Positions 5,865 through 60,767 are shown, counted from the stretch's first letter. The stretch: DNA of 64,000 nt from an uncultured Enterobacteriaceae bacterium (GCA_964356325.1 CAYHHL010000006.1:6536-70535), one strand, 5' to 3'. Made by a program: numbers and translations. The notes: a model not told the origin generated them from the letters alone.

Positions 5865-5867
5865 GCG

Positions 5868-8639: not shown

Positions 8640-8655
8640 CCTCTACCTCTCCACC

Positions 8656-13240: not shown

Positions 13241-13360
13241 CGTGTCGCCCTCCGTTTCTACAAGCCTACGCCGCGCCGAATCGATGTTCAAGATGTCGTG
13301 AACAACATTTGTGGCTTGCAGCGGGCTTGCAACCGGCGCGAGATCCGGCACGATGGCCGC

Positions 13361-13948: not shown

Positions 13949-14075
13949 CATCCGCGGCGCTGGCTTGGGTGGCACGTTGGTGAAAATGCCGAGCCGCTGC
14001 GGTCCGGATCGCCGAGTACGGGTCACAGCCGTCGCGAGCAGTGGTAAGCTGCGCGAAGGCGGGGAGGGCGGGGCG

Positions 14076-15569: not shown

Positions 15570-15571
15570 CC

Positions 15572-16150: not shown

Positions 16151-16229
16151 ACGCGCTGGGCGCAGGCGCATTGTCAGGTGGCTCGCAAAGGGTTACTACC
16201 GGGCGTCAGCCGTTGCCCGGAGGTGCGCA

Positions 16230-19696: not shown

Positions 19697-19965
19697 TCAC
19701 CACGGGGAACAACGCCCACCTACACAACTCAACCCGCCCCGGCATCGGTCGGCGTTGTTCACCTCCACGCAAGCCTCGCCCAGTTCCAAGCGCCTGCGAC
19801 AGAATCCCGCCACGCAACTCCGGTCGAAGTCAGCCATGCCGCAAACGCCCGCGAAGCAGGCTTCTCCCTCGGCCAGTTCGCGCAGGCACGGCGACGGTGA
19901 TCGCGCAGGCCAGCCTCCGTCGCGTCCGGTTCCGATCTCCACGCACGTTGGCGTCGCTCTCAGTG
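19697..19965 (-). pseudogene. Frameshifted partial tandem duplicate of the cysteine-rich repeat gene (N-terminal anchor segment fused to the last Cys-rich repeat)
   Basis: The DNA at 19899-19960 is homologous to the signal-anchor coding DNA at 21308-21365. The downstream sequence re-encodes LAEGEACxxxCGMxDFDRSCVxGFCRxRLELGxAC...CRxGLSCVGGxC in a different frame. Confidence 0.4.
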
Positions 19966-21357
19966 CGCACAGTGGCCGCCCACGCAACTCAGGCCCGAGC
20001 GGCAGCGCGCAACGCCTTCCCCATCCTCGCAAGCGGCACCGAGCTCCAAGCGGCTCCGACAGAATCCCTTCACGCAACTCCTGTCGAATTCCAACATTCC
20101 GCAAAGTCGTCTCGGGCAAGCATCGCCCTCGGCGAGTTCACGCACGCACAGTCGACGCTGTGGGTGGCACACGAACGGTGAGCGACAGCCCCAGTCTCCC
20201 GGCCTGAGTTCTGGGCTCGCCGAGCCGCACGGCTCTCCCTCGGTCGGCAACCCGACGCAGCGCCCGGCCCCGTCCTTCGTGGCACCCTGGCACTGCAACT
20301 CGTAACCGCACTCGTCATCGACGCGGCACGGCCCGCCAGCCTTTTGCATGCGCAGGCAGACCCGGCCCGTAGCCAGCGCGGTGCAGTACAGGCCCTCCTC
20401 GCACATCGTGGTGTCGGACCCTTCACAGGCCTGCCCTTCCCCTAGCCGCTTCGAACAGCGAGGCCCGGCGGCAGTGTCCAGGCAAAACAAGCCCTCGGCA
20501 CAGGAACCGGGCCTGCAAGCCTGGCCCTCGGCCAACCGTTCGCGACAGACGGCCGGCTTGCTTTCGACATCGCACCACAGGCCGGAAGCGGGCTCGCAGA
20601 TGTACTTGCAGCGTGCACCGGGAGTCGAGCCCCAGGGCAGGCAGCGTCCGTCGATGCAAAGCCTGGTGCCCGCATCGCAATCCGCGTCGCTCGAACAGCC
20701 CCCGTCCACCGAGGGCTTGCCCTGGACGGCGACAGCCCGGCACACGCCAGATTTGCTGTAGGGGCTCACAATGGTTGCGCTGCAGACCCGGCTCGCACAC
20801 TCCTCGCGCAACCGGCACAGTGCACCGACCACACCCTCGCCGTGGAAGACATGGGCGCAAACCGCCTCGCGAAGTTCCTCGGCGTCACAGAGACCGAACG
20901 CATGCACGCAGCGCGCGCCTGCACGGGCGTCATAGGTCAGCTTGCCGGCCCGAACGGCGTCCTCGTACTGCGAGCCGTGCATGCGGCGAAAAGCGGCAAA
21001 CATTGCCAGACAAGCTGGCAGGTCGGGACGTCGGCCGGGGCACCGGGCCAGGCTGCCGCACATGGCTTCGTCACGGGCCTCTTCGTACCGCTCGATCGGC
21101 AATGGCGCAGGCCCGTCCGTGCCAGTCGGAGCGTCGGCCAAGCGCGGCAGACCGGTGGGCACGGCGAGGCCCGCTTCGACCCCGCGTGCAGTGACGGCCG
21201 ACTGGGCCGGACCGGGCTCTCGGACGCGATGCTCGACCGTACCTGCGTTGGTTGCGACGTCCACGGGGCGGTAATCGCGAACGAAAAGCCAAGCGAGCAC
21301 CCCGACGGCGATCGCGCAGGCCAGCCAACGTCGCGTTCGGTTCCAATCTCGACGCAC
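19960..21357 (-). CDS. Membrane-anchored cysteine-rich repeat protein (myxobacterial-type Cys-rich repeats)
   Basis: A GTG at 21355-21357 gives VRRDWNRTRRWLACAIAVGVLAWLF, a signal anchor. It is followed by multiple C-x-x-G-x-C... repeat units and ends GLSCVGGHCAH. The start is uncertain. Confidence 0.6.
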   Translation of the reverse strand: MRRDWNRTRRWLACAIAVGVLAWLFVRDYRPVDVATNAGTVEHRVREPGPAQSAVTARGVEAGLAVPTGLPRLADAPTGTDGPAPLPIERYEEARDEAMCGSLARCPGRRPDLPACLAMFAAFRRMHGSQYEDAVRAGKLTYDARAGARCVHAFGLCDAEELREAVCAHVFHGEGVVGALCRLREECASRVCSATIVSPYSKSGVCRAVAVQGKPSVDGGCSSDADCDAGTRLCIDGRCLPWGSTPGARCKYICEPASGLWCDVESKPAVCRERLAEGQACRPGSCAEGLFCLDTAAGPRCSKRLGEGQACEGSDTTMCEEGLYCTALATGRVCLRMQKAGGPCRVDDECGYELQCQGATKDGAGRCVGLPTEGEPCGSASPELRPGDWGCRSPFVCHPQRRLCVRELAEGDACPRRLCGMLEFDRSCVKGFCRSRLELGAACEDGEGVARCRSGLSCVGGHCAH

Positions 21358-21620
21358 GTTGGCCTCCCGCCAGCAGAACCGCAGTCTGCGCCGCCGCCAC
21401 GGAGTTGTCAGCCCGGCAGGAAGCCCTCGAGCGCACGCTGCCAGGACAACTCGCCAGCCACCGTCTCGGCCACGGCGCGGGCAACGTCGAGAGCCTGCAC
21501 ATCGCCATTGCGGAGTCGCTTCTTCCGAAGACTGGCGTCTGAGCCGAGAGCGGACGGGCCTTGCGCCACCACCCCACCGCGCTACCCTGGCAGCCGCGCC
21601 GCACACCACCGGAGAACAGC

Positions 21621-22214
21621 ATGGGCCTGCCGCAACGTGAGACGAAACGCTTCACCTACGCCGACTACCTGCGCTGGCCGGACCCGCCGCGCCGCGAGTT
21701 GATCGACGGCTCGCCCTATGCCATGGCGCCCGCCCGCGACCTCGCGCACCAGGATGTCGTCGGCGAACTCATCCTGCAGCTCAAGCTGGCCCTCGAAGGC
21801 AAGCCCTGCCGGGCGTTCGTCGCCCCGGTCGCCGTCCGCCTGCCCAAGCACGACGAGGCCGACGAGAGCATCGACACCGTGGTCCAGCCCGACGTGTTCG
21901 TGGTGTGCGATCCCGGCAAGCTCGATCGCCGCGGCGTGCGCGGGGCACCGGACTGGGTGATCGAGGTCCTCTCGCCCGGCACCGCTGCCCACGACATGAT
22001 CCGCAAGCGGCGCGCCTACGAACAGGCCGGCGTGCGCGAGTACTGGCTGGTGCACTTGTTCGACCGCGTGGTCACCGTCTACCACCTGCAGGACGGCGCG
22101 TACGGTCGCCCGGATACCCAGGAACTCGAAGGCGAAACCGCGGTGGCGGCGCTGCCCGGCGTGGTCGTGCAATGGGCGCCGGTCGCGCGCTGGCTGCCGC
22201 CCCAAGAAGCTTGA
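21621..22214 (+). CDS. Uma2-family (DUF820) restriction-endonuclease-like protein
   Basis: YADYLRWPDPPRRELIDGSPYAMAPA ... PDVFVVCD ... PDWVIEVLSPGTAAHDMIRKRRAYEQAGVREYWLV is a PD-(D/E)xK-like Uma2 signature. Confidence 0.7.
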   Translation: MGLPQRETKRFTYADYLRWPDPPRRELIDGSPYAMAPARDLAHQDVVGELILQLKLALEGKPCRAFVAPVAVRLPKHDEADESIDTVVQPDVFVVCDPGKLDRRGVRGAPDWVIEVLSPGTAAHDMIRKRRAYEQAGVREYWLVHLFDRVVTVYHLQDGAYGRPDTQELEGETAVAALPGVVVQWAPVARWLPPQEA

Positions 22215-22236: not shown

Positions 22237-22830
22237 ATGCTGCCCCTCGTCCTCGGTCTGCTGCTGTTCCTCGGCATCCACTCGACCTCGATCGTCGCCC
22301 CCGCCTGGCGTGACCGCACCGCCGCCCGCCTCGGCACGGGGCCGTGGAAGCTGCTCTACACCGTGGTCGGAGTCATAGGTTTCGCACTCATCGTCTGGGG
22401 TTATGGCCAGGCCCGCCGCGATCCCACGTTCCTGTACTTCCCGCCGCGTGGCCTGGGCCACTTCGCCTTGCTGCTGCTGGTGCCGGTCTTCCCCCTGCTG
22501 CTCGCCGCCTACCTGCCGGGCAAGATCCGCAGCAAAACCAAGCACCCCATGCTCGTCGCGACCAAGCTCTGGGCGCTGGCGCACCTGATGGCCAATGGCG
22601 GCTTGCATGACGTGGTGCTGTTCGGCAGCTTCCTGGCCTGGGCGGTGGCGGATCGCATCTCGCTGAAACGACGCCCGTCTCAGCCGGTCCCTGGCGCGCC
22701 GACCCTGGCCGGAGCCGAACGACGTGGGCCGTACAATGACGCCATCGTGGTGGTGGCCGGTCTGGCGCTGTACGTCGTGTTCCTGCTGTGGGGGCACCGC
22801 GCGCTCATCGGGGTGTCGCCGATGCCGTGA
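22237..22830 (+). CDS. NnrU-family membrane protein
   Basis: MLPLVLGLLLFLGIHSTSIVAPAWRDR... It has five predicted TM segments and the NnrU-like N-terminal motif. Confidence 0.65.
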   Translation: MLPLVLGLLLFLGIHSTSIVAPAWRDRTAARLGTGPWKLLYTVVGVIGFALIVWGYGQARRDPTFLYFPPRGLGHFALLLLVPVFPLLLAAYLPGKIRSKTKHPMLVATKLWALAHLMANGGLHDVVLFGSFLAWAVADRISLKRRPSQPVPGAPTLAGAERRGPYNDAIVVVAGLALYVVFLLWGHRALIGVSPMP

Positions 22831-22861: not shown

Positions 22862-23611
22862 TTAGACGTTGAACCAAGGCGTCACCCAAACGTACTTCAC
22901 GTTGAGCAGCAACCGCAGCGCCATCTTCAGCGGAATCGCCAACATCGTCAGCAGCAGGAACGCCGTCAACGCGTAGCGAGCCCCGCCCAGGGTCACCAGC
23001 GCGGGCGATCGGCGCCGCCACAGCCAGTACACCGGGGCCAGCGCGTACCAGCCCAGGACCAGCGCCATGCCCGCGAGGAACGCCGGCGTGCCCGTGTGGA
23101 TACCCAGCAGATCCGTCAGGTTGACGTTGGTCAGGTGCGGCGTCTTGGCGATGTCCCAGGACTGCCACGGCCAGTACCAATTCCAGCCGGGACCGCGGCA
23201 GAACACGCCGATGAGGATGGGCGCGATCCACAACCCCAAGAAACCGAACAGGAACGTGGCGATGGCGAACGGTCGCTCGCGTATCGTGTAGTAACCGCTG
23301 CCGTGCGGGTTGCGGTCCAGGTAGGGAATCGCCATGAGTCCCACGACGATGAGCAGCGGCAGGATGACGCCAGCGATCCACGGGTCGAAGTAGACCAGCA
23401 GTTCCTGCAAGCCGAGGAAATACCACGGCGCTTTGGACGGATCCGGCGTGCGGTTGGGATCGGCGGCTTCCTCCAACGGCGCGTCAATCGCGATCGACCA
23501 CACGGTCAGCACCACCATCGCCACCAACGTCGTCAGCAACTCGATGCGCACCAGATGCGGCCACGTGGTCACGGCGTCGGGCAGCGTTTCGTCGGCTGGG
23601 CGCTCGGTCAT
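22862..23611 (-). CDS. Cytochrome b C-terminal module (b6f subunit IV-like) of a split Rieske/cytb complex
   Basis: It contains a PEWYFL-type motif (SKAPWYFLGLQELLVYF). It is multi-TM and lies directly downstream of the cytochrome b6-like gene. Confidence 0.75.
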   Translation of the reverse strand: MTERPADETLPDAVTTWPHLVRIELLTTLVAMVVLTVWSIAIDAPLEEAADPNRTPDPSKAPWYFLGLQELLVYFDPWIAGVILPLLIVVGLMAIPYLDRNPHGSGYYTIRERPFAIATFLFGFLGLWIAPILIGVFCRGPGWNWYWPWQSWDIAKTPHLTNVNLTDLLGIHTGTPAFLAGMALVLGWYALAPVYWLWRRRSPALVTLGGARYALTAFLLLTMLAIPLKMALRLLLNVKYVWVTPWFNV

Positions 23612-23774
23612 CGCCGCATCTCCCGCTCGATTTCGTCCTTGCGACCCGCGCGGATCAGGCGGTCATGGCGCAAGGCCTGGCGCAACCAGACGCCGAGCAG
23701 GAAGCCCAGCGCCAGGACCATGCCGGCGATCGGCAGGTTGTCGGGTTGCTTCAGGATGGTCAGGAAGTTGTCCA

Positions 23775-24641
23775 TCAGCTGCCACTCTTGGGCCGAAAGC
23801 CGTGTGCGCGCGTGGGGGCGATTCCAGGCGATGGCTCTTCGGCGTGGGGCGGTCCCGAAATGCCGCCGTCTTTTCGCACCCGCCAGAAGTGCACGATCAT
23901 GAACACGCAGGCGACCAGGGGCAAGAACACGCAATGCAGCACGTAGAAACGCAGGATCGCCGGATCGCCCACCTGGGGTCCGCCGAGCAGAAGCGCTCGC
24001 AGATCAGTGCGTTCCGTGACGCCCGTCAGCCCGGCGCCCGGCCCCTCGTGACCGATGAACGGCGTCGCCGCGGCCATGTTGGTGCCGACCGTGATCGCCC
24101 AGCGCGCGAGTTGGTCCCACGGCAGCAGGTAGCCGGTGAACGACAGCAGCATGGTCAGCGTCAGCAGCAACACCCCGACCATCCAGTTGAATTCGCGCGG
24201 TGCCTTGTAGGAACCCGAGAGGAACACCCGCAGCATGTGCAGCCACACCAGGATGACCATCGCGTGCGCGGACCAGCGGTGCATGTTGCGCATCACCATG
24301 CCGAACGGGATCTCGTGCTGCAGGTTCTTCATGTCGACGTAGGCGTGCGCGGCGGTCGGGCGGTAGTAGAACATCAGCACGACGCCGGTGACGACGGTGA
24401 CCAGGAACATCAGGAACGACAGCCCGCCCATGCCCCACGTGTAACGCAAGCGCAGGCCGTGACGGCGGATCGTCGGCGGGTGCAGGTGCAGGAACACGTT
24501 GCCGGTGATCTGCAGCATCCGGTTGCGCGGCGTGTCGTCGAAGCGGTGACGGAACACGGAGTCGTAGAGTTGGCGCAGCAACCCCGGACGCTCCGGCTTG
24601 TTCTCGACCGGCGGCGGCTCGTGCTCGAAGGGCGCGGTCAT
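23775..24641 (-). CDS. Cytochrome b (b6-like N-terminal module; haem bL/bH His ligands)
   Basis: [11 protein letters not shown]... RHRFDDTP ... [39 protein letters not shown] shows conserved His pairs. The ATG at 24639-24641 has an AAGGAG Shine-Dalgarno and overlaps the Rieske stop (ATGA). The track ORF is over-extended by 185 aa. Confidence 0.85.
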
Positions 24642-25174
24642 GCGCGCTCCTTGGTGGGAACCGCCAGAGTGGCACCGGGTTGGCCCCAGTCGGCGCGCTC
24701 GAAACGTCGGCCGACGTCGACCCAGAGATCGCCGGCGTCGTCCTGCCAGATGCGCGCGCGTTGCAAGGGCCGCGGTGCCGGTCCCTCGAAGTTGACGCCG
24801 GCGGTGTCGAACCCCGAGCCGTGGCAGGGACATTTGAACTTGGATTCGCGGCTGTACCAGCGCGGTGTGCAGCCCAGGTGGGTGCAACGGCCGAAGATGG
24901 CGTAGAGCCGGCCGCCTTCGTGGACGATGAACACGCGCCAGGTCTTGAGGAATCGGTCGCTGACGGTGCCGGGAGCATAGTCGGTGGGCCGGCCGGCGCG
25001 AAACAGGGTGGGAGCCTCGACCGGGGCGCGGCGAAACAACAGGCGACCGAAGGCGGCGCTGGCGGCGAGCAGCGACGTGCCGACCGCGGACCAGCCCAGG
25101 GCGGTCAGGACGTCGCGGCGTCCCCACAAGTGCGCGCGGCCCGCCTTGTCGGCATCTCGTGGGCTGTCGCTCAT
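24638..25174 (-). CDS. Rieske [2Fe-2S] iron-sulfur protein with a Tat signal
   Basis: [10 protein letters not shown] is a twin-arginine signal. CTHLGC ... CPCHGS are the Rieske boxes. Its ATG overlaps the stop of the octaheme cytochrome gene. Confidence 0.85.
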
Positions 25175-27495
25175 GGCGCATCTCCCTTGCGGTCACTCTC
25201 TGGGCGTGCGTCGGCGTCGGTAGCCACGGGCAACAGCCCGAGGTGCATCAAGTAGTCTACCAGCAAGTCGATCTGCGCGCCCGCGTCGCCGCCCAGGATG
25301 TCGTGGACCGGCGTTTGGCCATCGGGGAAGAACTGCGGCATGCGCGTGCCCGGCAGCAGCTTGTCGGGATCTTGCAGGAACTTGCGAATCCACGCCGGAT
25401 CCAGGCGCTGGCGGGCCAGGCCGAGGTCGGGCGCCAGTTGCGCGGTTTCGACACCCTCGCCGCGCTGCATCCGGTGGCAGGTCACGCACTTGAGCCGGTC
25501 GAGCAACTGCGCGCCCAGCCGAGCGCGTTCAGGCGTCAGCGGCCGCGTCGCCAGGGGGCGCAGCGAGGGCGGTTGCGCGGCATGCTCGGCGAACCAGGCG
25601 GTCACGGCCTCGGCCTCTGCCGCGGTCAGGCGAAAGCGCGGCATGCGTACTTCCAGCCACGGCCGCAATGGCCCGGGATCCAACAGGTAACCGTACAGCC
25701 ATTGCGGTTGCAGGCGGGCGCCCGCGCCGTCGAGTTGCGGCGGAGCGAGGTGGGCGTCGCCATAATAGCGCGCAATCGCTCCGGCCTGACCGTCGAGCTT
25801 GTGGCACTGGCGGCAACCGCGCTCCTCGATGACGCGCTCGGCGAGGCGGTGCTGCGCGGCACGGGGCGGTTGCACGCGGTAGGCGGCGGGCGGGGAATTG
25901 GCCCTGAGTCCGCGCAGGTACACCGCCAGGCCGAGCACCTCCGGCTCGGACAGGGCCCACTGCGGCATCACCGGGTGGATATCGGCCGTCGCCAGCGCCC
26001 GCGGTGTGCGCAGCTTGGTCTCGGTGAAGCGGGCCCAGGTGCGTTGCGGGCGCGGAGGCGGCGCCGCTCCGAAGTGCATGTCGCGGGGATCCTTGGTGCC
26101 GTAGTCGCTGAGGTCTGGCCCCGGCCGGCCGTCCTGCTCGAAGCCGGCGATGTCGTGGCAGCCGAAGCAACCATAGGTACCGATGAGCTTCTTGCCCGCC
26201 TGGGCCAGCGCCGGATCGATGGGCGCCAGCAGCGCGGGTGGCGCGGGCAGCTTCGGTGTCGTCGCCGCGGTGGTCAGCCAGGATGCGAGCGCGTGCGCCT
26301 CGGAACGGGTCAGGCGCGGCGTCGGCATCGTCGCCTCGGGCCAGTACTGCGTCGGATCTTGCAACCACGCGAAAACGAAGCCGGGACGCACGCGCGCAGC
26401 CAACTCGCCCAGCGGAGGCGCGAAATCGCCGGTCTGTGCAGCATGGGCCGCCAGCGCCGCGGTCGCCGTCGCAGCTGCGGGCTCGGGCGCTTCTCCAAAC
26501 GAATCCCAAGCATCGTTGCCAGCTTGCGCGTCCGGTTTGGCCTCGCGGATCACGACGTCGTCGCGGCCCTGGCCACCGAGTGCATGGCAGCCACGGCAAC
26601 CGACGCGATCGAACAACTGCTGGCCCGCGGCGGCGAGCGCCGGATCCGCGGGCGGTGCCGTGGCAGCCGCTGGCCACGGCTCGGCAGTCTGCACCAGGTA
26701 GGCGGCGATGGCCACAGACTCGCGGTCGCGCAACTCTGCCTGTGCTGGAGACTTGTGCGCATCGGGCCAGAACTGCGGCATGCGGTGATGGGCGCGCCGA
26801 GCCTGCGGGTCGCGGATCCACGCGAGCAGGTAGCCGGGTTCGAGCTTGGCCGAGACTTTGCGCAGCGACGGCCCGCGCTTCGGCTCGGCAGGCGCGCCGT
26901 CGTGGGCATGGCAACCGCCGCAACCCAACTCGCGAAAGGCCCGGCGACCGCGGTTCAGGTCGGGCGCACCGGCAAGCGACTCCTGGTCGGCGTGGCAGCC
27001 CAGGCAACTCGCCTGCACGTAACGCCCGCGCAGCATGGGGTCCTGCCAATGCGGATCGGCCTCGCCATGCGCCGTTCCCGCTGTCAGCGCCAGGCCTTGG
27101 CCACGGTGGCAGGGCGTGCAGCCGAAGCGCGGCACCGGATGCTGACGCAAAAGCGTATCGCGCTGCGGATGGACACGCAGCACGCGCGGCACGCCAGGGC
27201 CGGTCATCGCCGGATCGTCGATGCCAGCGTGGCAGGTGATGCAACGGTCGACGACGCCGAGTTCAGGCACGACGACCTGGGCGACTGCCACTTCAGCCGC
27301 GCGGGCGGGCCGCAACTGGGCGTAGGTCTCCTGCCATTGCTTCCACGGCCGCCGCACCCAGGTCTCGTCGGCGATGGCCCACACGGTCACGGCGGCAAAC
27401 GCCAGGCTCAACACCACGAAGGCGGCGCGGAAGTGGCGGTTCTCGTCGCGCAGGTACGGAGACACGCGTGGCCTGGGATCGAACGGAGGGGCTAC
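25171..27495 (-). CDS. Membrane-anchored octaheme c-type cytochrome (8 CxxCH)
   Basis: The haem motifs are CITCH, CTPCH, CLGCH, CGGCH, CRGCH, CFGCH, CRQCH and CVTCH. An N-terminal TM helix is present ([21 protein letters not shown]). The GTG at 27493-27495 overlaps the upstream stop (GTGA). The track ORF is over-extended by 60 aa. Confidence 0.8.
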
Positions 27496-28196
27496 TTGTA
27501 CGCGTGCGAGGCGTCGACCGTGCCACCCGCCGTCACGGTGAACTTGTGCGACGCCTTGCCCAGCTTTTCCTGCCAGTACATCAGCGTATAGTCGCCCGGC
27601 GGGATGTCGGCGATGGCAAACCGCCCTTCCTTGTCGGTCACCGCGAAGTAGGGGTGGTCGAATACGGCGATCCACGCGTTCATCCAGGTGTGGCCGGCGT
27701 CGCAGCCGACCTTCATCAGGCCAGTGCGCGCGACTTTCTTCTTGATGACCTGGCCCTTCTCCGGAAGCGCGTAGTTGAACACGTCTGAAGTCGGCAAGCG
27801 GATGTGGGTGTTGTGTAATATCGCGTCTTCATTCTTGACGTGCAGTTCGGTGCCGACGGCGAAGGCCTGGACGTGCGGTTCGAAGCGACAACTCGCGTTG
27901 TCGAGCTCGGCCTTGCCGACGACGAGGGGCTTGCCGCGCTCGACGCGCTCGATGAACACCACGGCGTTGGCGACCCCTTTGCTGGCCGAGACGAGCAGGG
28001 CTTCGTCGGCCTTGTCGGCGCCACACACCTGCGTATCTTTGGTCACTGGCAGGCGAACCGGCTTGGGCACGGCGCCGAGAAAGCGCACCGACCCGCTCAA
28101 GGTGCCGCCGCCGGTCACCGGAGCGCCCGTGTAGGCGAGCGCCGTGCTGGCCATGCCGCTCAGGACAATCGCCGCTAGGAGATTCTGCCAACGCAT
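27492..28196 (-). CDS. Secreted cupredoxin-like protein (possible blue-copper electron carrier)
   Basis: A signal peptide (MRWQNLLAAIVLSGMASTALA) and a beta-rich body are present. The C-terminal GCDAGHTWM (C-x3-H-x2-M) plus upstream His resembles a type-1 copper site. The fold assignment is tentative. Confidence 0.45.
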   Translation of the reverse strand: MRWQNLLAAIVLSGMASTALAYTGAPVTGGGTLSGSVRFLGAVPKPVRLPVTKDTQVCGADKADEALLVSASKGVANAVVFIERVERGKPLVVGKAELDNASCRFEPHVQAFAVGTELHVKNEDAILHNTHIRLPTSDVFNYALPEKGQVIKKKVARTGLMKVGCDAGHTWMNAWIAVFDHPYFAVTDKEGRFAIADIPPGDYTLMYWQEKLGKASHKFTVTAGGTVDASHAYK

Positions 28197-28248
28197 CGAA
28201 GCTGCCCTCCTTTGCCCCGCCGAGCATAGGGTTGCGCCATTCGGGGTG

Positions 28249-28743
28249 TCAAGGCGGGGCCGCCGGGCCCGGCCGCTCCCGATCAGCGCAAGTCTGTATT
28301 ATCGCTCGATCGTTTCGTGGTGGCGCCAGGGTGATGGCGCCCTTGATGCACACGCGCGCGCAGTCGCCGCACGACACGCAGCGGTGCGGGATGGCCAGCG
28401 CGGCATGACCCTGATAGCGAGGTCCGAGCATACGCAGGCAGCCGAACGGGCAGAAGTCGGCGCACAAGTGGCAGCCGTTACACAAGTTTTCGTCGATGAC
28501 CGGTCGCAGCCGCTGGTCGCGCGGGATGCGCACGGCGAGCTGGCCGTTGCCGTCGAATACCGCCTGTTTGGGACAGACGAGCCCGCACACGCCGCAGTCG
28601 ATGCACAGGGCGGCGTCGATGGCGTAGCGCTCCTTGAAGTGGCCGGAGATCGCCGCCACAGGGCACTGCTGCGCGCATGCGCTGCAACCGTCGCAGGTCA
28701 GGCCGATGCCGAACGACACGCTGCCATCCTCGGGCCGGAGCAA
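28249..28743 (-). CDS. Polyferredoxin (4 x [4Fe-4S] CxxCxxCxxxCP motifs)
   Basis: The cluster motifs are CDGCSACAQQCP, CIDCGVCGLVCP, CNGCHLCADFCP and CVSCGDCARVC. Confidence 0.75.
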   Translation of the reverse strand: MLRPEDGSVSFGIGLTCDGCSACAQQCPVAAISGHFKERYAIDAALCIDCGVCGLVCPKQAVFDGNGQLAVRIPRDQRLRPVIDENLCNGCHLCADFCPFGCLRMLGPRYQGHAALAIPHRCVSCGDCARVCIKGAITLAPPRNDRAIIQTCADRERPGPAAPP

Positions 28744-28755
28744 CCGGCGCCGTCC

Positions 28756-30528
28756 TCAGTTTAGCATCACCGCTCCGAATTCACAGACTTCCCGGCAACC
28801 GCCGCAACGGATGCACGCCGCCGCGTCGATGGCCATCGGGATGCCATCGCCCAACAAGTTGATGGCCATCGAGGCACACTGTTCGGCGCAGCGCGTGCAA
28901 CCGTCACAGACGTAGGGTTCGATCTCGTAGCGCACCAGGTCTCGGCAGCGGCCAGCCGGGCAGCGCTGCTCGGCAATGTGCGCCTCGAACTCGGCGCGAA
29001 ACCAGCGCAACGTGGTCAAGACCGGATTGGGCGCCGCGCGGCCCAGGCCACAGGCCGAACTGGCGCCGACCAGGGTGGCCAGCGACTCGAGCTGCTCCAG
29101 GTCGCCACGCCGGCCATGACCCGCGCAAATGCGCTCCAAGATCTCGAGCATGCGCCGCGTGCCGACGCGACAAGCAGAACAGCGGCCGCACGATTCGTCC
29201 TGCGTGAAGGCGACGAAATAGCGCGCCACGTCGACCATGCAAGCGGTGTCGTCCATGACCACGAGGCCGCCCGAGCCCATGATCGCGCCGGTTGCGCGCA
29301 GGGCCTCGTAATCGATGCGCGTGTCGAACAGTTCCGCCGGCACGCAACCGCCCGAAGGCCCGCCGATCTGCACGGCCTTGATCGGCCGGCCGCTGCGGCT
29401 GCCACCGCCGATGGTTTCGATCACGGTGCGCAAGGTGGCGCCGAGCGGCACTTCGACCATGCCGCCGCGCCGAACGTCGCCGGCCAGCGAAAACACCTTG
29501 GTGCCGGAGCTGTCGCAAGAACCGTGGCGGGCAAACGCGGCGGCACCGTGGCCGAGGATCCACGTGACGTTGGCGTAGGTTTCGACGTTGTTGATGCTGG
29601 TTGGCTGCTGCCACAGGCCGCGCTCGGCGGGAAACGGGGGCCGGCGCCGTGGGATGCCGCGCTCGCCCTCCAGCGCGGCGATGAGTGCCGTCTCCTCGCC
29701 GCACACGAACGCGCCGGCACCACGGTGAATGCTGACATCAAAGGCAAAACCGCTGCCGCCGACAGCGTCGCCCAACCAACCGGCAGCGCGCGCCTGGGCC
29801 ACGGCCCGGTCCAAGCGCTCGACCGCCAACGGGTATTCCTCGCGCACGTAGACGATGCCGTGCGCGGCGCCGATGGCCCAGGCCGCCAGGATCATGCCCT
29901 CCAGCACGCTGTGTGGGTCGCCTTCCAAGAGGTTGCGGTCCATGAACGCGCCGGGATCGCCCTCGTCGGCGTTGCACACGACGTAGCGCAGGCTGGCCGG
30001 CGTGTCGCGGGCGAGGCGCCACTTGCGTGCGGTGGGGAAGCCGGCGCCGCCACGCCCGCGCAGGCCCGAAGTCTCGATTTCGCCAAGGACCGCGGCGGGT
30101 GATGACGTCGCCAGCGCGCGTGCCAGGGCCTGGTAGCCGCCGTGCGCGACATAGTCCTCGAGCGATTCGGGGTCGATGCGCCCGCAGCGGCCGAGCACCA
30201 GCCGTTCCTGGTGGGCGAAGAAATCGCGTTCGGCAACATAGGTTTCGCCGCGGGAGATGAGGTGGCCGGCGAGCGGCACTCCAGCGCGCAGGTGGCCATC
30301 GAGCAAGGCGGGCAAGAGTTCGGGCGTGACATCGCCGTAGAGGCAACGTCCGAGTGCGCCGCCTTCGACCTCGACCAGGACCTCGCGGTAGCACAGCCCG
30401 AGGCAACCGGTGATGCCCACTTGCGCGACAAGGCCCGATGCACGCAGGTATTGCTGCACGGCGTCCTGCACGCGCCGCCCGCCGGCCGCGATGCCGCACG
30501 AGCCCAAGCCGATGACGATGCGGGTCAC
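28756..30528 (-). CDS. NuoF-like NAD(H)-binding FMN flavoprotein (51-kDa subunit homolog) with an N-terminal thioredoxin-like [2Fe-2S] domain and two C-terminal 4Fe-4S ferredoxin motifs (HoxF/FdsB/NfnB-like architecture)
   Basis: VIGLGSCGIAAGGRRV is a 2Fe-2S thioredoxin-like domain. GRGGAGFPTARKW ... YVVCNADEGDPGAFMDR are the NuoF FMN/NADH motifs. ESCGRCSACRVG carries the N3 cluster Cys ligands. CDGCTRCAEQC and CIRCGGCREVC are ferredoxin motifs. The GTG at 30526-30528 overlaps the nuoE-like stop (GTGA). Confidence 0.85.
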   Translation of the reverse strand: MTRIVIGLGSCGIAAGGRRVQDAVQQYLRASGLVAQVGITGCLGLCYREVLVEVEGGALGRCLYGDVTPELLPALLDGHLRAGVPLAGHLISRGETYVAERDFFAHQERLVLGRCGRIDPESLEDYVAHGGYQALARALATSSPAAVLGEIETSGLRGRGGAGFPTARKWRLARDTPASLRYVVCNADEGDPGAFMDRNLLEGDPHSVLEGMILAAWAIGAAHGIVYVREEYPLAVERLDRAVAQARAAGWLGDAVGGSGFAFDVSIHRGAGAFVCGEETALIAALEGERGIPRRRPPFPAERGLWQQPTSINNVETYANVTWILGHGAAAFARHGSCDSSGTKVFSLAGDVRRGGMVEVPLGATLRTVIETIGGGSRSGRPIKAVQIGGPSGGCVPAELFDTRIDYEALRATGAIMGSGGLVVMDDTACMVDVARYFVAFTQDESCGRCSACRVGTRRMLEILERICAGHGRRGDLEQLESLATLVGASSACGLGRAAPNPVLTTLRWFRAEFEAHIAEQRCPAGRCRDLVRYEIEPYVCDGCTRCAEQCASMAINLLGDGIPMAIDAAACIRCGGCREVCEFGAVMLN

Positions 30529-31031
30529 GGGGCCAGCCGTCCGGACGCCGCGCCGGCCCGGTCCTCGATGGCGGCGACGGCGCGGCGGCTGTCGAGGCGG
30601 ACGTAGGTCTCGCCGTCTACGGTCATCACTGGCGCCAAGCTGCAACAGCCTAGGCACGCGACGGTTTTCAAGGTGAACGCCAGGTCTGACGTAGTGCCGC
30701 CCGGTGCGATGTCGAGGCGCTGCGCGACGGCTTCGGCAATGCGGCGCGCGCCGCTCACGTGGCAGGCCGTGCCCTTGCACACGCGCACCAGCACACGGCC
30801 GCGGCGCTCCAGCGAGAAACTGTCGTAGAACGTCGCCACGCCGTAGATGCGCGCCAGCGGGATGCCGGTGCGCTCGGCCAGCGCTCGCAACATCGCGCCC
30901 GGCATGTGCCCGAACTGCTTCTGCGTTTCCTGGAGCAGCGCCACTACATCGCCACCGTGGCGGGCAACGATCGCATCCAGCCACGCGCCGTGCGCTTCAG
31001 GGTCGATGGTAGCGGGTTCGGACGCGGCCAA
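30525..31031 (-). CDS. NuoE-like thioredoxin-fold [2Fe-2S] protein (24-kDa subunit homolog)
   Basis: GVATFYDSF ... CKGTACHVSG ... CLGCCSLAPVM is the NuoE cluster-binding pattern. A TTG start at 31029-31031 is preceded by AAGGAGG with a 5-nt spacer. Confidence 0.7.
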   Translation of the reverse strand: MAASEPATIDPEAHGAWLDAIVARHGGDVVALLQETQKQFGHMPGAMLRALAERTGIPLARIYGVATFYDSFSLERRGRVLVRVCKGTACHVSGARRIAEAVAQRLDIAPGGTTSDLAFTLKTVACLGCCSLAPVMTVDGETYVRLDSRRAVAAIEDRAGAASGRLAP

Positions 31032-31208
31032 GGCGGCCTCCTTGCAGCGGCGCGCCCTGATGACGCGATCGCTGCCGGGCCACACCGTAGGCTTGCCCCG
31101 GCTGGAGATCAAGGCAATGCAGCAGGATGCCAAGCGCCTGAGGTATCTGCAGCGGAAGGCAACGCCAACGTGGTCCCGCCCGCCGCGCTCTGCTACCCTC
31201 GGTCGGCG

Positions 31209-32444
31209 ATGCAACCACCAGACAACATGACTCCACTTCCATCACGACATGCCCGGGTTTCGGCGCGTTCGAAGGCGGCCCTCGCCGTGGCGGCACTGAC
31301 TTTGGCATGCGCGGCCGAACCGCTGGCACCGGGCGAAGCCAACCTGGGGCCCATCGAACACGTCGTCGACGCCAAGGCGCGCGCGGTCTGGCCCGGGCTG
31401 ACGCGCGACGACGGCAGCAGATATATTCGCCACATCAATGGATTTTTCGACGGCACGCCCACTGGTTGCTGGTTCTTCGGCCTGTCCTCGCGCGCGACGG
31501 CCGATGTCTTCGTGTTCTGCCGCGCCGGCGACAAAATGTGCCCGTTCGACGCCCAAGGCCGCGCGCAATGGTCGCACATGGCAGGCGATCCGGTGTTTGC
31601 GCGCATGCCCGGCGAGACCGGCTACTCGCCCTACTGGCTGGTGTGGGTGGTCACGGTGCCTGCAGACTACCGGGCGGGCGACCTCAAGTCGGTGGAAGGC
31701 ATCAACAAGGCCAAGGCAGCCGGCCGCGTCCAGGTCGATCAGCTCGTCTTCGACCACGGCGGCACGGTCGGCCCCGGCGTAGCGGTCATGCATTGCGCCC
31801 TGGTCCTGGCGGGCACGACGTTGGAGCGCGCGGGCGGCGATGTCGTCGGCCAGCCGGGCGTCGCGATCCGACCGATCGAGGACCGCTTGGGTTGGCACAA
31901 GCAGTATCGCGTCCACTTCTATGACTTCACCGCCAGCGAAGGGGTCGGGCCCGCCGATGCGTCCAGCCAGTCCCGGCCCATGATGATCGTCAGCGATCTC
32001 TTCGTGATCCAACGCGATTGTGCCGGTGGTTCAGCCTCGCCCTTGTGTACTGCCGGCATCGGGCGCGCTCCAGTCGGCGAACGCGACGTCGATATCGATT
32101 TCACCCACGACGGCGATAAGTTCGACACCAACTACGTGTTGATGGCGAACCCGTTCAAGGCGCCGGCCGACCCCGCGGACGCTGGCCGCGCCTACTCGCC
32201 CTTATGGCGGGTGAGCACGGTGCTGGTGCGACCCGCCCACGACGCCGAAGTGCCGCTCATCGACACCACCGGCAACCAAAGCCAATCGAGCATCAAGTCC
32301 GTGGCAGACCTGCGCGCGGCCATCGCCAAGGGAATCGCCGGCGAGCCCGAAGCCATGACCGAGGCGGCAACCGGCGCCATCCCCGGCAACGATGGCCATG
32401 CTTACTTCAGTTGCCCGTCGCAGGTGCCGTGGAACGCGCCCTGA
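31209..32444 (+). CDS. Lipoprotein of unknown function (paralog A)
   Basis: MQPPDNMTPLPSRHARVSARSKAALAVAALTLACAAEP has a lipobox (LTLAC). It is ~55% identical to the next gene over its body. It ends ...FSCPSQVPWNAP. Confidence 0.55.
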   Translation: MQPPDNMTPLPSRHARVSARSKAALAVAALTLACAAEPLAPGEANLGPIEHVVDAKARAVWPGLTRDDGSRYIRHINGFFDGTPTGCWFFGLSSRATADVFVFCRAGDKMCPFDAQGRAQWSHMAGDPVFARMPGETGYSPYWLVWVVTVPADYRAGDLKSVEGINKAKAAGRVQVDQLVFDHGGTVGPGVAVMHCALVLAGTTLERAGGDVVGQPGVAIRPIEDRLGWHKQYRVHFYDFTASEGVGPADASSQSRPMMIVSDLFVIQRDCAGGSASPLCTAGIGRAPVGERDVDIDFTHDGDKFDTNYVLMANPFKAPADPADAGRAYSPLWRVSTVLVRPAHDAEVPLIDTTGNQSQSSIKSVADLRAAIAKGIAGEPEAMTEAATGAIPGNDGHAYFSCPSQVPWNAP

Positions 32445-32570
32445 AGCTTTGACCACGACCCGGTGTGGTATGGGCTACGCAGATGGTGTAGGTTGGCAGC
32501 ACACTGCGGAACGGCCGTTTCGCAGCGCGTGCCGGGGCCTGCTCATGTGCGGCCAGACGGGAGGTATGCG

Positions 32571-33794
32571 ATGTGCGGAGCCCTTGCGCGACAGCGCCGG
32601 CACGCGAACCTGCTGAGCGTCGCGATGACCGCGCTGCTGCTTGCCGCTGCCTGCACCGCTGATCCAGAGCCGAGTGCCGAAGCCGACCTCGGCCCCATCG
32701 AGAACAGCCTCGACGACAACGCCTTGTCGGTGTTTCCCGGCCTCAAGCGGGATGACGGTAGCCATTACATCCGTCAGATCAATGGCTATTTCAACGGCCA
32801 AGAGACCGGCTACTGGTTCTTCGGCTTCGCCTCGCGCGCCACTGCCGACGTGTTCGTGTTTTGCCGGGAGGGCGACAAGGTCTGCCCGTTCGACCAGAAG
32901 GGCCACGCGCAATGGTCGCACATGGTCGGCGATCCGGTGTTCGCGCGCGTGCCGGGCCAGACCGGCTTCTCGCCATTCTGGCTGGTGTGGCAGGTCACGG
33001 TGCCGGCCAGCTACCAGGCCAACGACATCAAGTCGGTCGCTGGCGTGCACGCGGCCGTCGCTGCGGGGCGCGTCAAAATGGACCTGCACTTGCACGATCA
33101 CGGCGGCGCAATAGGCCGCGGCCAAACGATCATGCACTGCGCCCACGTGCTCGCCGACACGACGCTGGAACGGGCGGGCGAGGACATCGTCGGCAGGCCC
33201 GGCGTGAAGAACCTCGTCATCGAGCGCCGCCGCGGCTGGCACAAGCAGTACCGCATCCACCTGTTCGACTTCACCTCCAGCGAGGGCGTCACCGCGCCCG
33301 ACCCGAACAGCCAGTCGCGGCCGCTGATGCGCACGTCGGACATCTACGTCCTGTTTCGCGACTGCAACGGCGGTTCGAAATCGACCGCGTGCGGCCTGGT
33401 CAACACGTTGGCTGGTTCCGTCAGCGAGCGCGGCACCGAGACGGATCTGACCAACGACGCCGACAAGCGCGACACCAACAACGTGCTGGTCTCCTTCCCC
33501 GGCCAACTGCCCGTGGACCCCATCGATGCCGAGCGCGTGTACTCGCCGCTGTGGCGCGTCAACAAGGTGGTCGTCAAGGCCGCGTACGACAAGAACGTTC
33601 AACTGCTTGATGATACGCACGATCAGACGAAATCCAGCGTCAAGTCCGTGGCCGACATCCGAGCGCTGGTGACCCAGGGCTACGTCAAGCCGATCGAGTT
33701 CGTCGACGAAGGCATGACCGGCACGGCCATTCTCGGCAACGACGGCTTGACCTTCTTTTCCTGCCCATCCCAGGTGCCTTTCGATGCGCCTTGA
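32571..33794 (+). CDS. Lipoprotein of unknown function (paralog B, tandem duplicate of 31209..32444)
   Basis: GGGAGG-N6-ATG precedes MCGALARQRRHANLLSVAMTALLLAAAC (lipobox). The body is collinear with paralog A (DDGSxYIRxINGxFxGxxTGxWFFGxxSRATADVFVFCRxGDKxCPFD...). It ends FFSCPSQVPFDAP. Confidence 0.6.
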   Translation: MCGALARQRRHANLLSVAMTALLLAAACTADPEPSAEADLGPIENSLDDNALSVFPGLKRDDGSHYIRQINGYFNGQETGYWFFGFASRATADVFVFCREGDKVCPFDQKGHAQWSHMVGDPVFARVPGQTGFSPFWLVWQVTVPASYQANDIKSVAGVHAAVAAGRVKMDLHLHDHGGAIGRGQTIMHCAHVLADTTLERAGEDIVGRPGVKNLVIERRRGWHKQYRIHLFDFTSSEGVTAPDPNSQSRPLMRTSDIYVLFRDCNGGSKSTACGLVNTLAGSVSERGTETDLTNDADKRDTNNVLVSFPGQLPVDPIDAERVYSPLWRVNKVVVKAAYDKNVQLLDDTHDQTKSSVKSVADIRALVTQGYVKPIEFVDEGMTGTAILGNDGLTFFSCPSQVPFDAP

Positions 33795-34302
33795 CCGTTT
33801 TCGTCGCCATGTCGCGCTCGGCGCCTGGGCGCTGGCTACTGGCTGTTTGCTGACAAGCTGCGAGCCGGCCCCGGACATCGAGCCCTCGGCTTGCCGCAAT
33901 CCGGTGCCCGCGGTGGCTGAATTGGGCACGGGCGATCTCAACACCGGCTTCAAGCCGATGGCCGACGGCGCCGACGCGCTGGTCACGCTGGGGCCGCAAG
34001 GGCTGCACATGATCCTGGTGAGCGTCAAGCTGACCGGGTTCGAGGCGCCACCGGCGGGCGGCGGACGCAGTCAGCTCTGGCTCTCCGTGCGCAGCCAGGA
34101 CACGTTCCTGGGCGCGATTCCTGCGACGGAAAAGCCGGTCGTGCTGGACGACAAGACCGTGGCGTTCCTGGGCTTGCGGCCGGCGATGACGTTGGACAAT
34201 GTCAGCGCGTATTTCGGCAAGCTCTCCGAGGTCGAAGTGACGATCCGCGACGGCTGCGATCGGCTGATCCATGCCAAGCGCATGGTCCGACTGGTGCAAT
34301 GA
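33784..34302 (+). CDS. Small lipoprotein, hypothetical
   Basis: MRLDRFRRHVALGAWALATGCLLTSCEPAP has a lipobox (LTSC). Its start overlaps the previous stop. Confidence 0.5.
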   Translation: MRLDRFRRHVALGAWALATGCLLTSCEPAPDIEPSACRNPVPAVAELGTGDLNTGFKPMADGADALVTLGPQGLHMILVSVKLTGFEAPPAGGGRSQLWLSVRSQDTFLGAIPATEKPVVLDDKTVAFLGLRPAMTLDNVSAYFGKLSEVEVTIRDGCDRLIHAKRMVRLVQ

Positions 34303-35234
34303 CGCTGACTGCGGTGCTGCGCTGCGTCGCGCTGATCACCGTGACATGGGCATGCCGGTCGCCCGAGCCCACCAAGCCGTTGCCCGCGCCTGCGACACAA
34401 GCCCTGGAGATGGCTCGTGATCAGTGGTTCTTTGCCGCGCAAACCCCTGAACCTGTGCTGCTGGCGCTCATCCTCCAACGCACGCGCGACCGCGAGGCGA
34501 CCGCTACCACCCTGGAAGCCAAGGCGTTCCTGGTGGCGCGCGATCGCCTGCAGTCGCTGTTCTGGGAACGGGTGGAACTCGATCGCTGGCCCGGCGAGGA
34601 CCTGGCGACGGTCTTGACCGCGTGGCAGAAGCAGCGCAAGGGACCGGGGTTGCGGCTTGCGTTTGCCACCGAACCTGCCGGGCTGACCCTGACCGTGCGC
34701 CAGCCGGCTGGCGGCTTCACCCTGACCGCCACGGACTTGCAACCTATCGGTACGACCAACGATCCGCACGGCGAGAGCCAGCTTCGCGCCGGCACCGGTC
34801 AACTCGAGGTCAACGGCGTGAAGTGGCAGGGCCAGGTCCTCGCCGAGCACCTGGAGCCGGGCAGCCGGGCGTGGCCGAGCTTTGGCCGATTCGAGATGTG
34901 GCTCGCGGCCCCGACCGAGGGCGGCCTCGTGCTCGGTCGTTGCGATCTGCGCGCGCCGCCGCCCTGTGGCGAGGCGGTGGTGCTGTCGCCGGGCCAGCCA
35001 CCGCTCCGTCAGGGTTTCGCGGTCCAACCGTTCGATGCGCAACGCGACGTGACGACGGGATTTTTGCTGCCAAGGCGCTGGCGGCTGGAACCGATGGCCG
35101 GTGGCGAAGTCGTCTGGCGCGACGGGCAGACGGGGCGCGGTCGGGCACCGGGCGGGTCGCAGGCTGTTTACGATATCGGCGTCGCGAGCGGTCCAGGCGC
35201 GCTGGCGCTGGTCTTTCACTTGCAGGATCAATGA
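34299..35234 (+). CDS. Secreted protein or lipoprotein, hypothetical
   Basis: MTLTAVLRCVALITVTWACRSPEPT is a signal peptide. It overlaps the previous gene by ATGA. Confidence 0.5.
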   Translation: MTLTAVLRCVALITVTWACRSPEPTKPLPAPATQALEMARDQWFFAAQTPEPVLLALILQRTRDREATATTLEAKAFLVARDRLQSLFWERVELDRWPGEDLATVLTAWQKQRKGPGLRLAFATEPAGLTLTVRQPAGGFTLTATDLQPIGTTNDPHGESQLRAGTGQLEVNGVKWQGQVLAEHLEPGSRAWPSFGRFEMWLAAPTEGGLVLGRCDLRAPPPCGEAVVLSPGQPPLRQGFAVQPFDAQRDVTTGFLLPRRWRLEPMAGGEVVWRDGQTGRGRAPGGSQAVYDIGVASGPGALALVFHLQDQ

Positions 35235-39693: not shown

Positions 39694-39740
39694 GGGCAGC
39701 CGTGGCGGCGTGGTGGTGGCGCCGCGTTGGTGAGGGTGGC

Positions 39741-46412: not shown

Positions 46413-46486
46413 CGCAACAACCGAGCCCGCCGAAAGGGGCCGGCAGACTGCCAGGTGCGCGCCGCGTTCAAGCTGTGGGTTGTCTC

Positions 46487-56070: not shown

Positions 56071-56091
56071 ACGATTGCGCAAGGGGGCCCC

Positions 56092-60707: not shown

Positions 60708-60767
60708 GCGGGGATGGGCGGTACCGGTGCGGGGCATGGCGGCGATCCTTGCGGTGGCTTCGAACGC

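Follow-up and report, generated by a model that had tools for sequence, protein, structure and literature searches.

A Rieske/cytochrome b operon of a myxobacterium-like bacterium encodes a polyferredoxin and a predicted electron-bifurcating BfuBC flavoprotein

The closest described counterparts of the system reported here are two complexes of the anammox bacterium Kuenenia stuttgartiensis, Kustd1480-1485 and Kuste4569-4574, which contain a b6-like cytochrome b, a subunit IV, a hexa- or octahaem cytochrome c and a cytoplasmic NAD(P) oxidoreductase (PMC12954380). All of their subunits are stated to co-migrate experimentally, and the reductase subunits are structurally homologous to domains of NfnABC (9bp5) and to the FwdF polyferredoxin (5t5i); an AlphaFold3 (AF3) model leads from haem b through four clusters to flavin adenine dinucleotide (FAD), and the Rieske potentials are +303 and +335 mV, the latter for Kustd1480 (PMC12954380). 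A related operon type was described in Nitrospina in 2013 and is common to Kuenenia and Methylomirabilis oxyfera (PMC3578206). Here we analyse nine closely spaced genes on the minus strand (22862-31031) of a stretch of 64,000 nucleotides, called the window below, from an assembly labelled as an uncultured Enterobacteriaceae bacterium (GCA_964356325.1, CAYHHL010000006.1:6536-70535). In this operon a Rieske/cytochrome b complex is encoded together with a polyferredoxin and with a pair of proteins predicted to form a complete BfuBC core.

Families were assigned to the operon proteins with Pfam and NCBIfam profiles, and solved relatives were taken from matches to structure chains. The first gene encodes BfuC, a NuoE-like thioredoxin-like [2Fe-2S] subunit of 168 amino acids (30525-31031, minus strand, TTG start; 2Fe-2S_thioredx, E 7e-43), and is joined by a GTGA overlap to the gene for BfuB, a NuoF-like subunit of 590 amino acids binding flavin mononucleotide (FMN) and NAD(H) (28756-30528, minus strand; Complex1_51K 6e-48, NADH_4Fe-4S 3e-30, SLBB and Fer4). 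Residues 3-588 of BfuB align with NfnB of the Caldicellulosiruptor NfnABC (9bov_B, E 6e-226), and the alignment keeps the cysteines of the N-terminal thioredoxin-like [2Fe-2S] domain, the NuoF-type cluster and both C-terminal [4Fe-4S] motifs, the CxxCxxCxxxC motifs at 541 and 572 of a C-terminal 2x[4Fe-4S] domain. Its further solved matches are, in descending order, the archaeal NfnB 9n5u_B, 8oh5_B (deposited as HoxF), the HydB proteins of NiFe and FeFe enzymes, and then FdsB and Nqo1; the best solved relatives of BfuC are 8oh5_A, 9bov_C (NfnC) and HydC. Extra clusters of this kind distinguish bifurcating BfuBC cores from non-bifurcating NuoF homologues (PMC9304861). Those of BfuB fit the published Bfu criteria, which identifies the pair, judged from its sequence, as a full BfuC/BfuB core, that is, a predicted electron-bifurcating flavoprotein of the NfnBC/HydBC type.

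An initial annotation of this DNA had called the pair NuoE/NuoF-like subunits of an NADH dehydrogenase. The family matches hold, whereas the assignment to a complex I module does not, given the end-to-end match of BfuB and scores below the equivalog cut-offs, namely 457 against 559 for the NuoF profile TIGR01959 and 127 against 141 for the NuoE profile NF005722. It is very improbable that the two proteins serve as diaphorase for an enzyme with its genes elsewhere, be it complex I or a formate dehydrogenase or hydrogenase, the latter two having been raised by that annotation itself. The NCBIfam matches to HoxE, FdsG and NuoE/NuoF profiles could be read in this way, but every one of them is sub-threshold, and the non-bifurcating FdsB and Nqo1 lack the extra clusters found here. 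Moreover, no gene for NuoG or another Nuo subunit, for molybdopterin or for the catalytic part of a formate dehydrogenase or hydrogenase was found among the window open reading frames (ORFs) scanned, and the Pfam-annotated calls of L006, the sole related Bfu locus with such calls, contain no evident gene for NuoG, for molybdopterin or for the catalytic part of a hydrogenase; a partner of this type was rejected on these three grounds. In L006 (11788-14082) the NuoE-like and NuoF-like parts are fused in one protein of 764 amino acids, which confirms that the two act together.

The third gene (28249-28743, minus strand) encodes a polyferredoxin of 164 amino acids with four CxxCxxCxxxC motifs at 17, 47, 88 and 122. 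The polyferredoxin, BfuB and BfuC have no signal peptide and no real transmembrane (TM) segment and are therefore considered cytoplasmic. The best solved relatives of the polyferredoxin are MvhB (9sw6_G) and FwdF (5t5i_F). Its orthologues, 50-60% identical, are confined to a clade of Myxococcales-labelled genomes whose cytochrome b is at least 74% identical, with two weak matches outside it (L027 and L057; 28% and 37%). A library-wide phmmer search with the polyferredoxin returned only six close orthologues; the closest relatives in the library are free-standing small ferredoxins or fusions with iron alcohol dehydrogenase. No polyferredoxin-NfnA fusion was found in that search, in which the longer matches scanned were iron alcohol dehydrogenase fusions (P0370, P0427) or larger all-Fer4 proteins.

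There is no BfuA gene in the operon, where the polyferredoxin gene starts 12 nt after BfuB. The only BfuA homologue of the window is an NfnA-like gene 13 kb away (13965-15569, plus strand), encoding a short BfuA of 534 amino acids (Fer2_4, Fer4_20, FAD/NAD-binding) with a [2Fe-2S] site, a GltD-like FAD/NAD(P) domain and NuoG-like clusters. Its best solved relatives are 9bov_A (2e-67), 8oh5_C and the NfnA protein 9n5u_A, and among the fetched loci its best match is the NfnA-like gene that adjoins the Rieske/cytochrome b genes in L006. Its product may be the displaced partner of the operon BfuBC. The operon thus fits either the rare Bfu Type 4, which is without BfuA, or a BfuA displaced to 13965-15569. 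The NfnA-like proteins found here are short (~530 amino acids) and lack the C-terminal molybdopterin-like domain of 9bov_A. In the window the NfnA-like gene stands between genes for a MarR-like regulator and a glucose-methanol-choline oxidoreductase, the three being consecutive (13298-17852, plus strand).

The remaining six genes, all on the minus strand, encode the membrane complex and its periplasmic partners. The Rieske [2Fe-2S] protein (24638-25174; 178 amino acids, Pfam Rieske E 3e-10) carries the cluster boxes CTHLGC and CPCHGS and a twin-arginine signal (GRRDVL) for Tat export. It is followed by a four-helix cytochrome b6-like cytochrome b (23775-24641; 288 amino acids, Cytochrome_B E 1.6e-42), in which the haem ligands His121/135 and 236/251 are invariant in 24 homologues and have b6-like spacing, by a 55-amino-acid protein with a single TM segment (23608-23775), whose gene overlaps both neighbours, and by a subunit IV-like protein (22862-23611; 249 amino acids, about five TM segments, Cytochrom_B_C E 1e-6). 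Cytochrome b matches the ExtP profile (E 8e-81) with a score of 270.7 against a cut-off of 290 and subunit IV the ExtQ profile (E 9e-15) with 55 against 150; the b6f subunit IV profile likewise stays below its cut-off. Subunit IV reads APWY in place of PEWY and so lacks the glutamate, a position which often varies in menaquinol-using lineages. The cysteine that attaches haem ci (cn) covalently ahead of helix A in cyanobacterial and Firmicute b6f-b6c complexes corresponds to a glycine in the Myxococcales clade (cytochrome b residues 50-72; YTWGMGG, in place of the FTWCMGG of Nitrospina-type relatives), which ruled out haem ci as an n-side entry point. The n-side histidines of the LHLHP and RRH motifs were also considered as clade-specific ligands of an extra haem b and were set aside, since both motifs are invariant throughout the family, Nitrospina included, and hence say nothing about the linkage; one of these histidines could be the counterpart of the residue that binds the additional haem b in the AF3 prediction for Kuenenia.

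No cytochrome c1 or f is encoded in the cluster, and its place is taken by a membrane-anchored octahaem cytochrome c of 764 amino acids (25171-27465, GTG start) with eight CxxCH motifs, Cytochrom_C matches in four stretches (E 9e-33) and one N-terminal TM segment; the view that this is not a canonical bc1 or b6f complex is thus borne out. The gene before it (27492-28196) encodes a secreted cupredoxin of 234 amino acids with a C-terminal transthyretin-like (CarboxypepD_reg) domain. Export or anchoring places the Rieske protein, octahaem cytochrome and cupredoxin on the periplasmic side. Invariant residues of the cupredoxin in 30 homologues, down to 41% identity, are C58, C103, H128, H131, C165, D166, H169, W171 and M172, among which H128/H131, C165, H169 and M172 make up a type-1 ligand set and a candidate copper site. 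The AlphaFold2 model is confident (predicted local distance difference test, pLDDT, 93.6) and displays the cupredoxin beta-sandwich fold; together with the conserved ligands it upholds the earlier cupredoxin-like call and predicts copper binding.

With regard to the layout, the initial annotation had described eight genes on the minus strand with a largest gap of ~160 nt and four 4-nt overlaps. Order, strand and families are as it gave them, the family and motif matches agreeing with its Rieske, cytochrome b6-like, subunit IV-like, octahaem cytochrome c, polyferredoxin and cupredoxin calls, but the supposed gap holds the ninth gene (23608-23775), and the widest true gap measures 52 nt and separates the polyferredoxin gene from that of the cupredoxin. 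From one gene to the next, the spacings are, in order, -4, 12, 52, 26, -4, -4, -1 and -4 nt. Three of the four overlaps are present, GTGA at 30525-30528 and ATGA at 25171-25174 and 24638-24641, the latter two flanking the Rieske gene on both sides; 27492-27495 reads GTAG, not GTGA, and the octahaem cytochrome starts with GTG at 27465, 26 nt past the cupredoxin stop, a start taken from independent gene calls. The gene for the 55-amino-acid protein joins its neighbours by TGATG and ATGA overlaps, is called in five other assemblies (L004-L007 and L168) and has tblastn matches extending to Nitrospina. A second source of gene calls was another assembly of the same organism (L168, L169), made with an independent gene caller: eight of the nine gene lengths are identical in L168, and the NuoE-like gene, truncated there by the contig end, gives 168 amino acids in L169. 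It was an exact-sequence look-up with the cupredoxin (P0121) that located this organism in ENA assemblies; those with cytochrome b and with P0001 found nothing. The nine products may form a single complex. No credible terminator was found within the gene cluster in a terminator scan. A sigma-70-like promoter match lies in the polyferredoxin/cupredoxin gap (28223-28252, minus strand; TTGACA-18-TATGCT, 10/12, a consensus match only), and two sites of this kind were found in 10 kb against 0.5 expected. A sigma-54-like pattern, TGGCAT-N4-CTGCA, is found 86 nt upstream of the first operon gene (31117-31132, minus strand); it has just two matches in the 64-kb window and is not conserved among the related loci.

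To see how far the arrangement extends, relatives were collected by a scan with cytochrome b, which with one genome per species gave 80 loci, and all nine window proteins were compared with these by tblastn. The nearest relatives of the window are uncultured Myxococcales metagenome-assembled genomes (MAGs), and its content of guanine and cytosine is ~68%, in agreement with the high-GC myxobacterium-like host proposed earlier. MAGs labelled Acidobacteriota, Planctomycetota, Bacteroidota/Ignavibacteria, Zixibacteria, Nitrospinota, Binatia and Chlorobium carry the core, which consists of Rieske protein, cytochrome b (with the 55-amino-acid protein), subunit IV, multihaem cytochrome c and cupredoxin. 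Among the 80 loci, Bfu genes stand beside it solely in the closest Myxococcales-labelled clade, where the adjacency is found in five loci (the window, L019, L006, L014 and L018) and in four gene orders. Writing E and F for the NuoE- and NuoF-like genes, polyFd for the polyferredoxin and MHC for the multihaem cytochrome c, the window has E-F-polyFd-cupredoxin-MHC-Rieske-b-55aa-IV; L019 has cupredoxin-MHC-Rieske-b-55aa-IV-E-F-NfnA-polyFd; L006 has a divergent NfnA gene followed by MHC...IV, the EF fusion and polyFd; L014 has MHC...IV convergent with E-F-NfnA-polyFd; and L018 ends with its contig after ...IV-E. The linkage has thus been kept through three rearrangements, which include an inversion, a move to the opposite end of the operon and a gene fusion, and an NfnA-like gene for an NADP/FAD subunit adjoins in three of the five loci (L019, L014, L006). 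In L004/L015, L011, L012 and L013 the order is polyFd-cupredoxin-MHC... with no Bfu genes within 5.8-10 kb, and L016 has neither polyferredoxin nor Bfu genes. The polyferredoxin gene therefore follows the Bfu genes in L006, L014 and L019, whereas in L004, L011, L012 and L013 it opens the Rieske/cytochrome b operon; its pairing with either module is the pattern expected of an adaptor.

The negative-control set consisted of 80 generic BfuB loci from metagenomes, with BfuB proteins 48-55% identical, and none of the 80 contains Rieske or cytochrome b genes. The metagenome scan with BfuB from which they come was dominated by one generic peptide pattern and gave ordinary Bfu loci alone, with no further Myxococcales loci. 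The linked BfuB proteins are mutual best matches, which points to one acquisition followed by rearrangements that preserved the adjacency. The adjacency could also result from shared ancestry or co-regulation within a larger redox gene island, BfuBC and an NfnA-like BfuA then being a soluble transhydrogenase of the Nfn/Stn type with the polyferredoxin as its ferredoxin partner and no wire to the membrane complex. This is a serious rival, if less likely than not. It would account for the fact that BfuB, BfuC and the NfnA-like protein are all best matched by chains of NfnABC (9bov, 9n5u) and 8oh5, and for the C-B-A order of L019 and L014, which is also that of most generic BfuB loci. A single clade of linked BfuB, a promoter-like site separating the polyferredoxin and cupredoxin genes, a neighbourhood that is a conserved island of cytochromes, Cyc2-like porin and lipoproteins, and the free-standing ferredoxins and iron alcohol dehydrogenase fusions nearest to the polyferredoxin would suit it as well. 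However, the adjacency outlasts inversion, transposition to the other operon end and gene fusion, and the polyferredoxin keeps its place in the Rieske/cytochrome b operon at loci without Bfu genes nearby. In addition, the window operon is without BfuA and has its polyferredoxin gene 12 nt after BfuB, and the analogous anammox module is reported to co-migrate with its complex (PMC12954380).

The resemblance to the anammox complexes that had been suggested for this locus is supported in several respects. Kustd1480-1485 and Kuste4569-4574 share with the window a b6-like cytochrome b with subunit IV, a multihaem cytochrome c in the place of cytochrome f and, next to the genes of the complex, those for a putative iron-sulfur/flavin module of the cytoplasm that uses NAD(P); the Ser/Phe pattern by box II of the Rieske protein (CPCHGSGF) is common to the window and Kustd1480. 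The NfnA- and FwdF-like part types of the anammox module (PMC12954380) recur unfused in the window, L019 and L014 with BfuBC added, as seen in the polyferredoxin matching FwdF and MvhB and in the NfnA-like gene of the relatives, Kuenenia being compared by description only; common descent of the two cytoplasmic modules is unproven. Unlike the fused anammox module, the polyferredoxin of the window is a separate protein of 164 amino acids, the flavoprotein of the operon is the FMN-containing BfuBC, which the anammox complexes are not reported to have, and the NfnA-like gene lies outside the operon. The window also differs in having a cupredoxin and the 55-amino-acid subunit and in lacking both an octahaem protein like hydroxylamine oxidoreductase (HAO) and the haem ci cysteine, and its host is a Myxococcales MAG whereas the anammox hosts are Brocadiales.

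The Nitrospina gracilis operon shares 70% identity with the window in cytochrome b, 58% in subunit IV, 47% in the Rieske protein and 32% in the multihaem cytochrome, and a small protein of 55-60 amino acids is common to both. N. gracilis has its multihaem gene in last position and retains the cysteine for haem ci (FTWCMGG), and there is no polyferredoxin, Bfu gene or cupredoxin nearby. The ext cluster of Geobacter sulfurreducens (ExtO/P/Q/S, ExtM) provides the top NCBIfam profiles, ExtP, ExtQ and ExtM, all with scores below the equivalog cut-offs; to our knowledge its gene designations, extHIJKLMNOPQS, name no flavoprotein or polyferredoxin. The ext cluster and the window both place a b-type complex amid multihaem cytochromes and an outer-membrane porin-like protein (PMC5877670). 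As for the Bfu family (NfnABC/StnABC, HydABC), the window has its BfuC and a full-length BfuB with all the cluster motifs, and Type 4 likewise does without BfuA. The predicted membrane-bound members are Nuo-Bfu and Mbh-Bfu, and the words "Rieske" and "cytochrome b" have 0 occurrences in the survey of the family (PMC9304861).

On balance we favour a wire between haem b and BfuBC, in whichever direction electrons pass. The nine genes would encode a menaquinol-oxidising complex of the Rieske/cytochrome b6 type, in which the oxidation of quinol at Qo would send one electron downhill into the periplasmic chain, from the Rieske protein to the octahaem cytochrome c and on to the cupredoxin and neighbouring c-type cytochromes, and the other uphill across the membrane. 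This second, low-potential branch would run through the two b haems to the four clusters of the polyferredoxin at the cytoplasmic face and then to BfuBC, whose cofactors would be FMN, a single [2Fe-2S] cluster on BfuC and the five clusters of BfuB. NAD+ would be reduced at BfuB, and NADP+ or ferredoxin perhaps too where an NfnA-like subunit is present. The polyferredoxin would dock on cytochrome b or subunit IV on the n-side and so link haem bH to BfuB. We infer the physical wire from haem b to NAD(H), the docking, the electron transfer between haem b and the clusters, and its direction. The direction from quinol to NAD+ plus a periplasmic acceptor, which follows the scheme put forward for anammox bacteria, is the one preferred, though only tentatively.

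The window contains a menaquinone and aromatic-precursor cluster (2752-13534) with genes for a MenD-like thiamine pyrophosphate enzyme, an isochorismate synthase (MenF), a 3-deoxy-D-arabino-heptulosonate 7-phosphate (DAHP) synthase, a polyprenyl synthetase, a MenC/MenE-like fusion of 972 amino acids and a MenB-like enoyl-CoA hydratase, which implies a menaquinone-based respiratory chain. This cluster and the APWY motif fit a low-potential quinone, so that a very reducing b-haem branch is possible; menaquinone in combination with a Rieske centre at about +300 mV allows for this.

Several points weigh against the favoured reading. The transfer of electrons from menaquinol to NAD+ needs a Rieske potential near +300 mV and very low b-haem potentials, and the electron crossing from the P to the N side opposes the membrane potential, so that the process is thermodynamically tight; "unusual energetics" is the wording of the anammox report itself (PMC12954380). 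The haem ci cysteine of the Nitrospina relatives is missing in the window clade. The NfnA-like BfuA that accompanies the Bfu genes in L019, L014 and L006 makes a self-sufficient NADPH/NAD/ferredoxin transhydrogenase possible, while five related loci keep the polyferredoxin with no Bfu genes in the 5.8-10 kb around it, and L016 has neither. Since the linked BfuB proteins belong to a single clade, the five loci do not stand for five independent acquisitions, and the homology of the polyferredoxin to the anammox domain is unproven. Finally, the sigma-70-like site at 28252-28223 might give the cytochrome part its own transcript; it coincides with the ferredoxin/cupredoxin junction, the place where the initial annotation had set a transcript boundary as evidence against a joint unit.

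Electrons might also flow in reverse, from NADH or reduced ferredoxin through BfuBC and the polyferredoxin to haem bH and an n-side quinone site, which would make the complex an NADH (or ferredoxin):quinone or :cytochrome c oxidoreductase. A similar role, that of a ferredoxin-plastoquinone reductase, has long been proposed for the b6f complex with bound ferredoxin-NADP+ reductase (FNR), and the step from NADH (-320 mV) to menaquinone (-74 mV) is thermodynamically easy. The linkage evidence serves this direction equally, no complex I genes were found among the window ORFs scanned, and quinones are already among the predicted third substrates of Bfu enzymes, for example in Nuo-Bfu (PMC9304861). 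Nevertheless we regard it as unlikely, for a non-pumping entry of NADH wastes ~250 mV, a BfuB of the bifurcating type seems over-built for the task, and the protein lacks the haem ci cysteine, a residue regarded as serving electron entry from the n-side in b6f.

A further version of the quinol-oxidising reading, in which two bifurcations work in series, is quite improbable: low-potential electrons from Qo would pass by way of the polyferredoxin and be split again by BfuBC between NAD+ and ferredoxin or, with NfnA present, NADP+. If it were true, quinol could directly supply a respiring menaquinone bacterium with NADH and reduced ferredoxin, the cost being borne by a periplasmic acceptor of high potential, whose chain may lead to the neighbouring Cyc2-like cytochrome-porin, and this would be the first Bfu enzyme with a Rieske/cytochrome b complex as third partner.

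The operon is part of a conserved redox island. Upstream of it and in divergent orientation (31230-35234, plus strand) are genes for two paralogous DUF7482-like lipoproteins, a lipoprotein of 172 amino acids and a protein of 311 amino acids; homologues adjoin the Rieske/cytochrome b genes in L006, L016 and L019, and these proteins may belong to the same system. Further out are a dihaem cytochrome c and a fused monohaem cytochrome-porin of 375 amino acids, a pair that recurs in L019 and L014. The haem-proximal motif of the cytochrome-porin, AEPAFAVRE-x3-CSACH, is a partial fit to the Cyc2 signature. A DUF3570 gene (minus strand) and a gene for an ExtM-like nine-haem cytochrome c (plus strand) occupy 38024-42146; L018 and L019 have both of them upstream of the cupredoxin gene, and the cytochrome recurs in L009 too. 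Such surroundings point to an exchange of electrons between the periplasmic branch and the outside of the cell, in either direction.

Among the other genes of the window, an NnrU gene (22237-22830, plus strand) is convergent on the operon end and is preceded by a Uma2 endonuclease-like gene (21561-22214, plus strand) and by a large Cys-rich protein with no Pfam match (19960-21609, minus strand); the NnrU family has been linked to denitrification and nitric oxide stress. At 52487-56748 (plus strand) genes for a NapC/NirT-type multihaem cytochrome, a HAMP histidine kinase and a LuxR-type response regulator stand in this order, and at 58560-63800 (minus strand) two large proteins with Dicty_CTDC repeats are encoded. 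A fused CofC/DUF2064/radical-SAM/SPASM gene (46190-48121, plus strand) has the same unusual make-up as one at the edge of L006 (20050-20786), so that synteny reaches past the redox island.

Neither the core complex nor the notion that a Rieske/cytochrome b complex may be linked to NAD(P) is new. The novel points are a non-anammox lineage with the linkage, a flavoprotein that is a full BfuBC core of the bifurcating type, a polyferredoxin that stands alone and a cupredoxin subunit. A literature search for Rieske/cytochrome b with NuoF, Bfu or polyferredoxin, covering work outside paywalls, returned the anammox papers alone and no account of this arrangement. It is the first genomic case found of a complete BfuBC core encoded with a quinol-oxidising complex, and it brings quinone-based and flavin/iron-sulfur-based bifurcating systems together in one operon. 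The NAD(P)-linked Rieske/cytochrome b complex has so far been an unproven peculiarity of anammox bacteria, and a homologous core with cytoplasmic parts of the same sort in a second, unrelated lineage argues for a general design; the relatives, with split or fused parts and with or without NfnA, supply sequence variation for modelling and mutagenesis. Should there be no wire, the locus would still illustrate clearly how a redox gene island is conserved among freshwater Myxococcales. If the wire is true, it would revise the view of how NADH, NADPH and reduced ferredoxin are generated in respiring bacteria.

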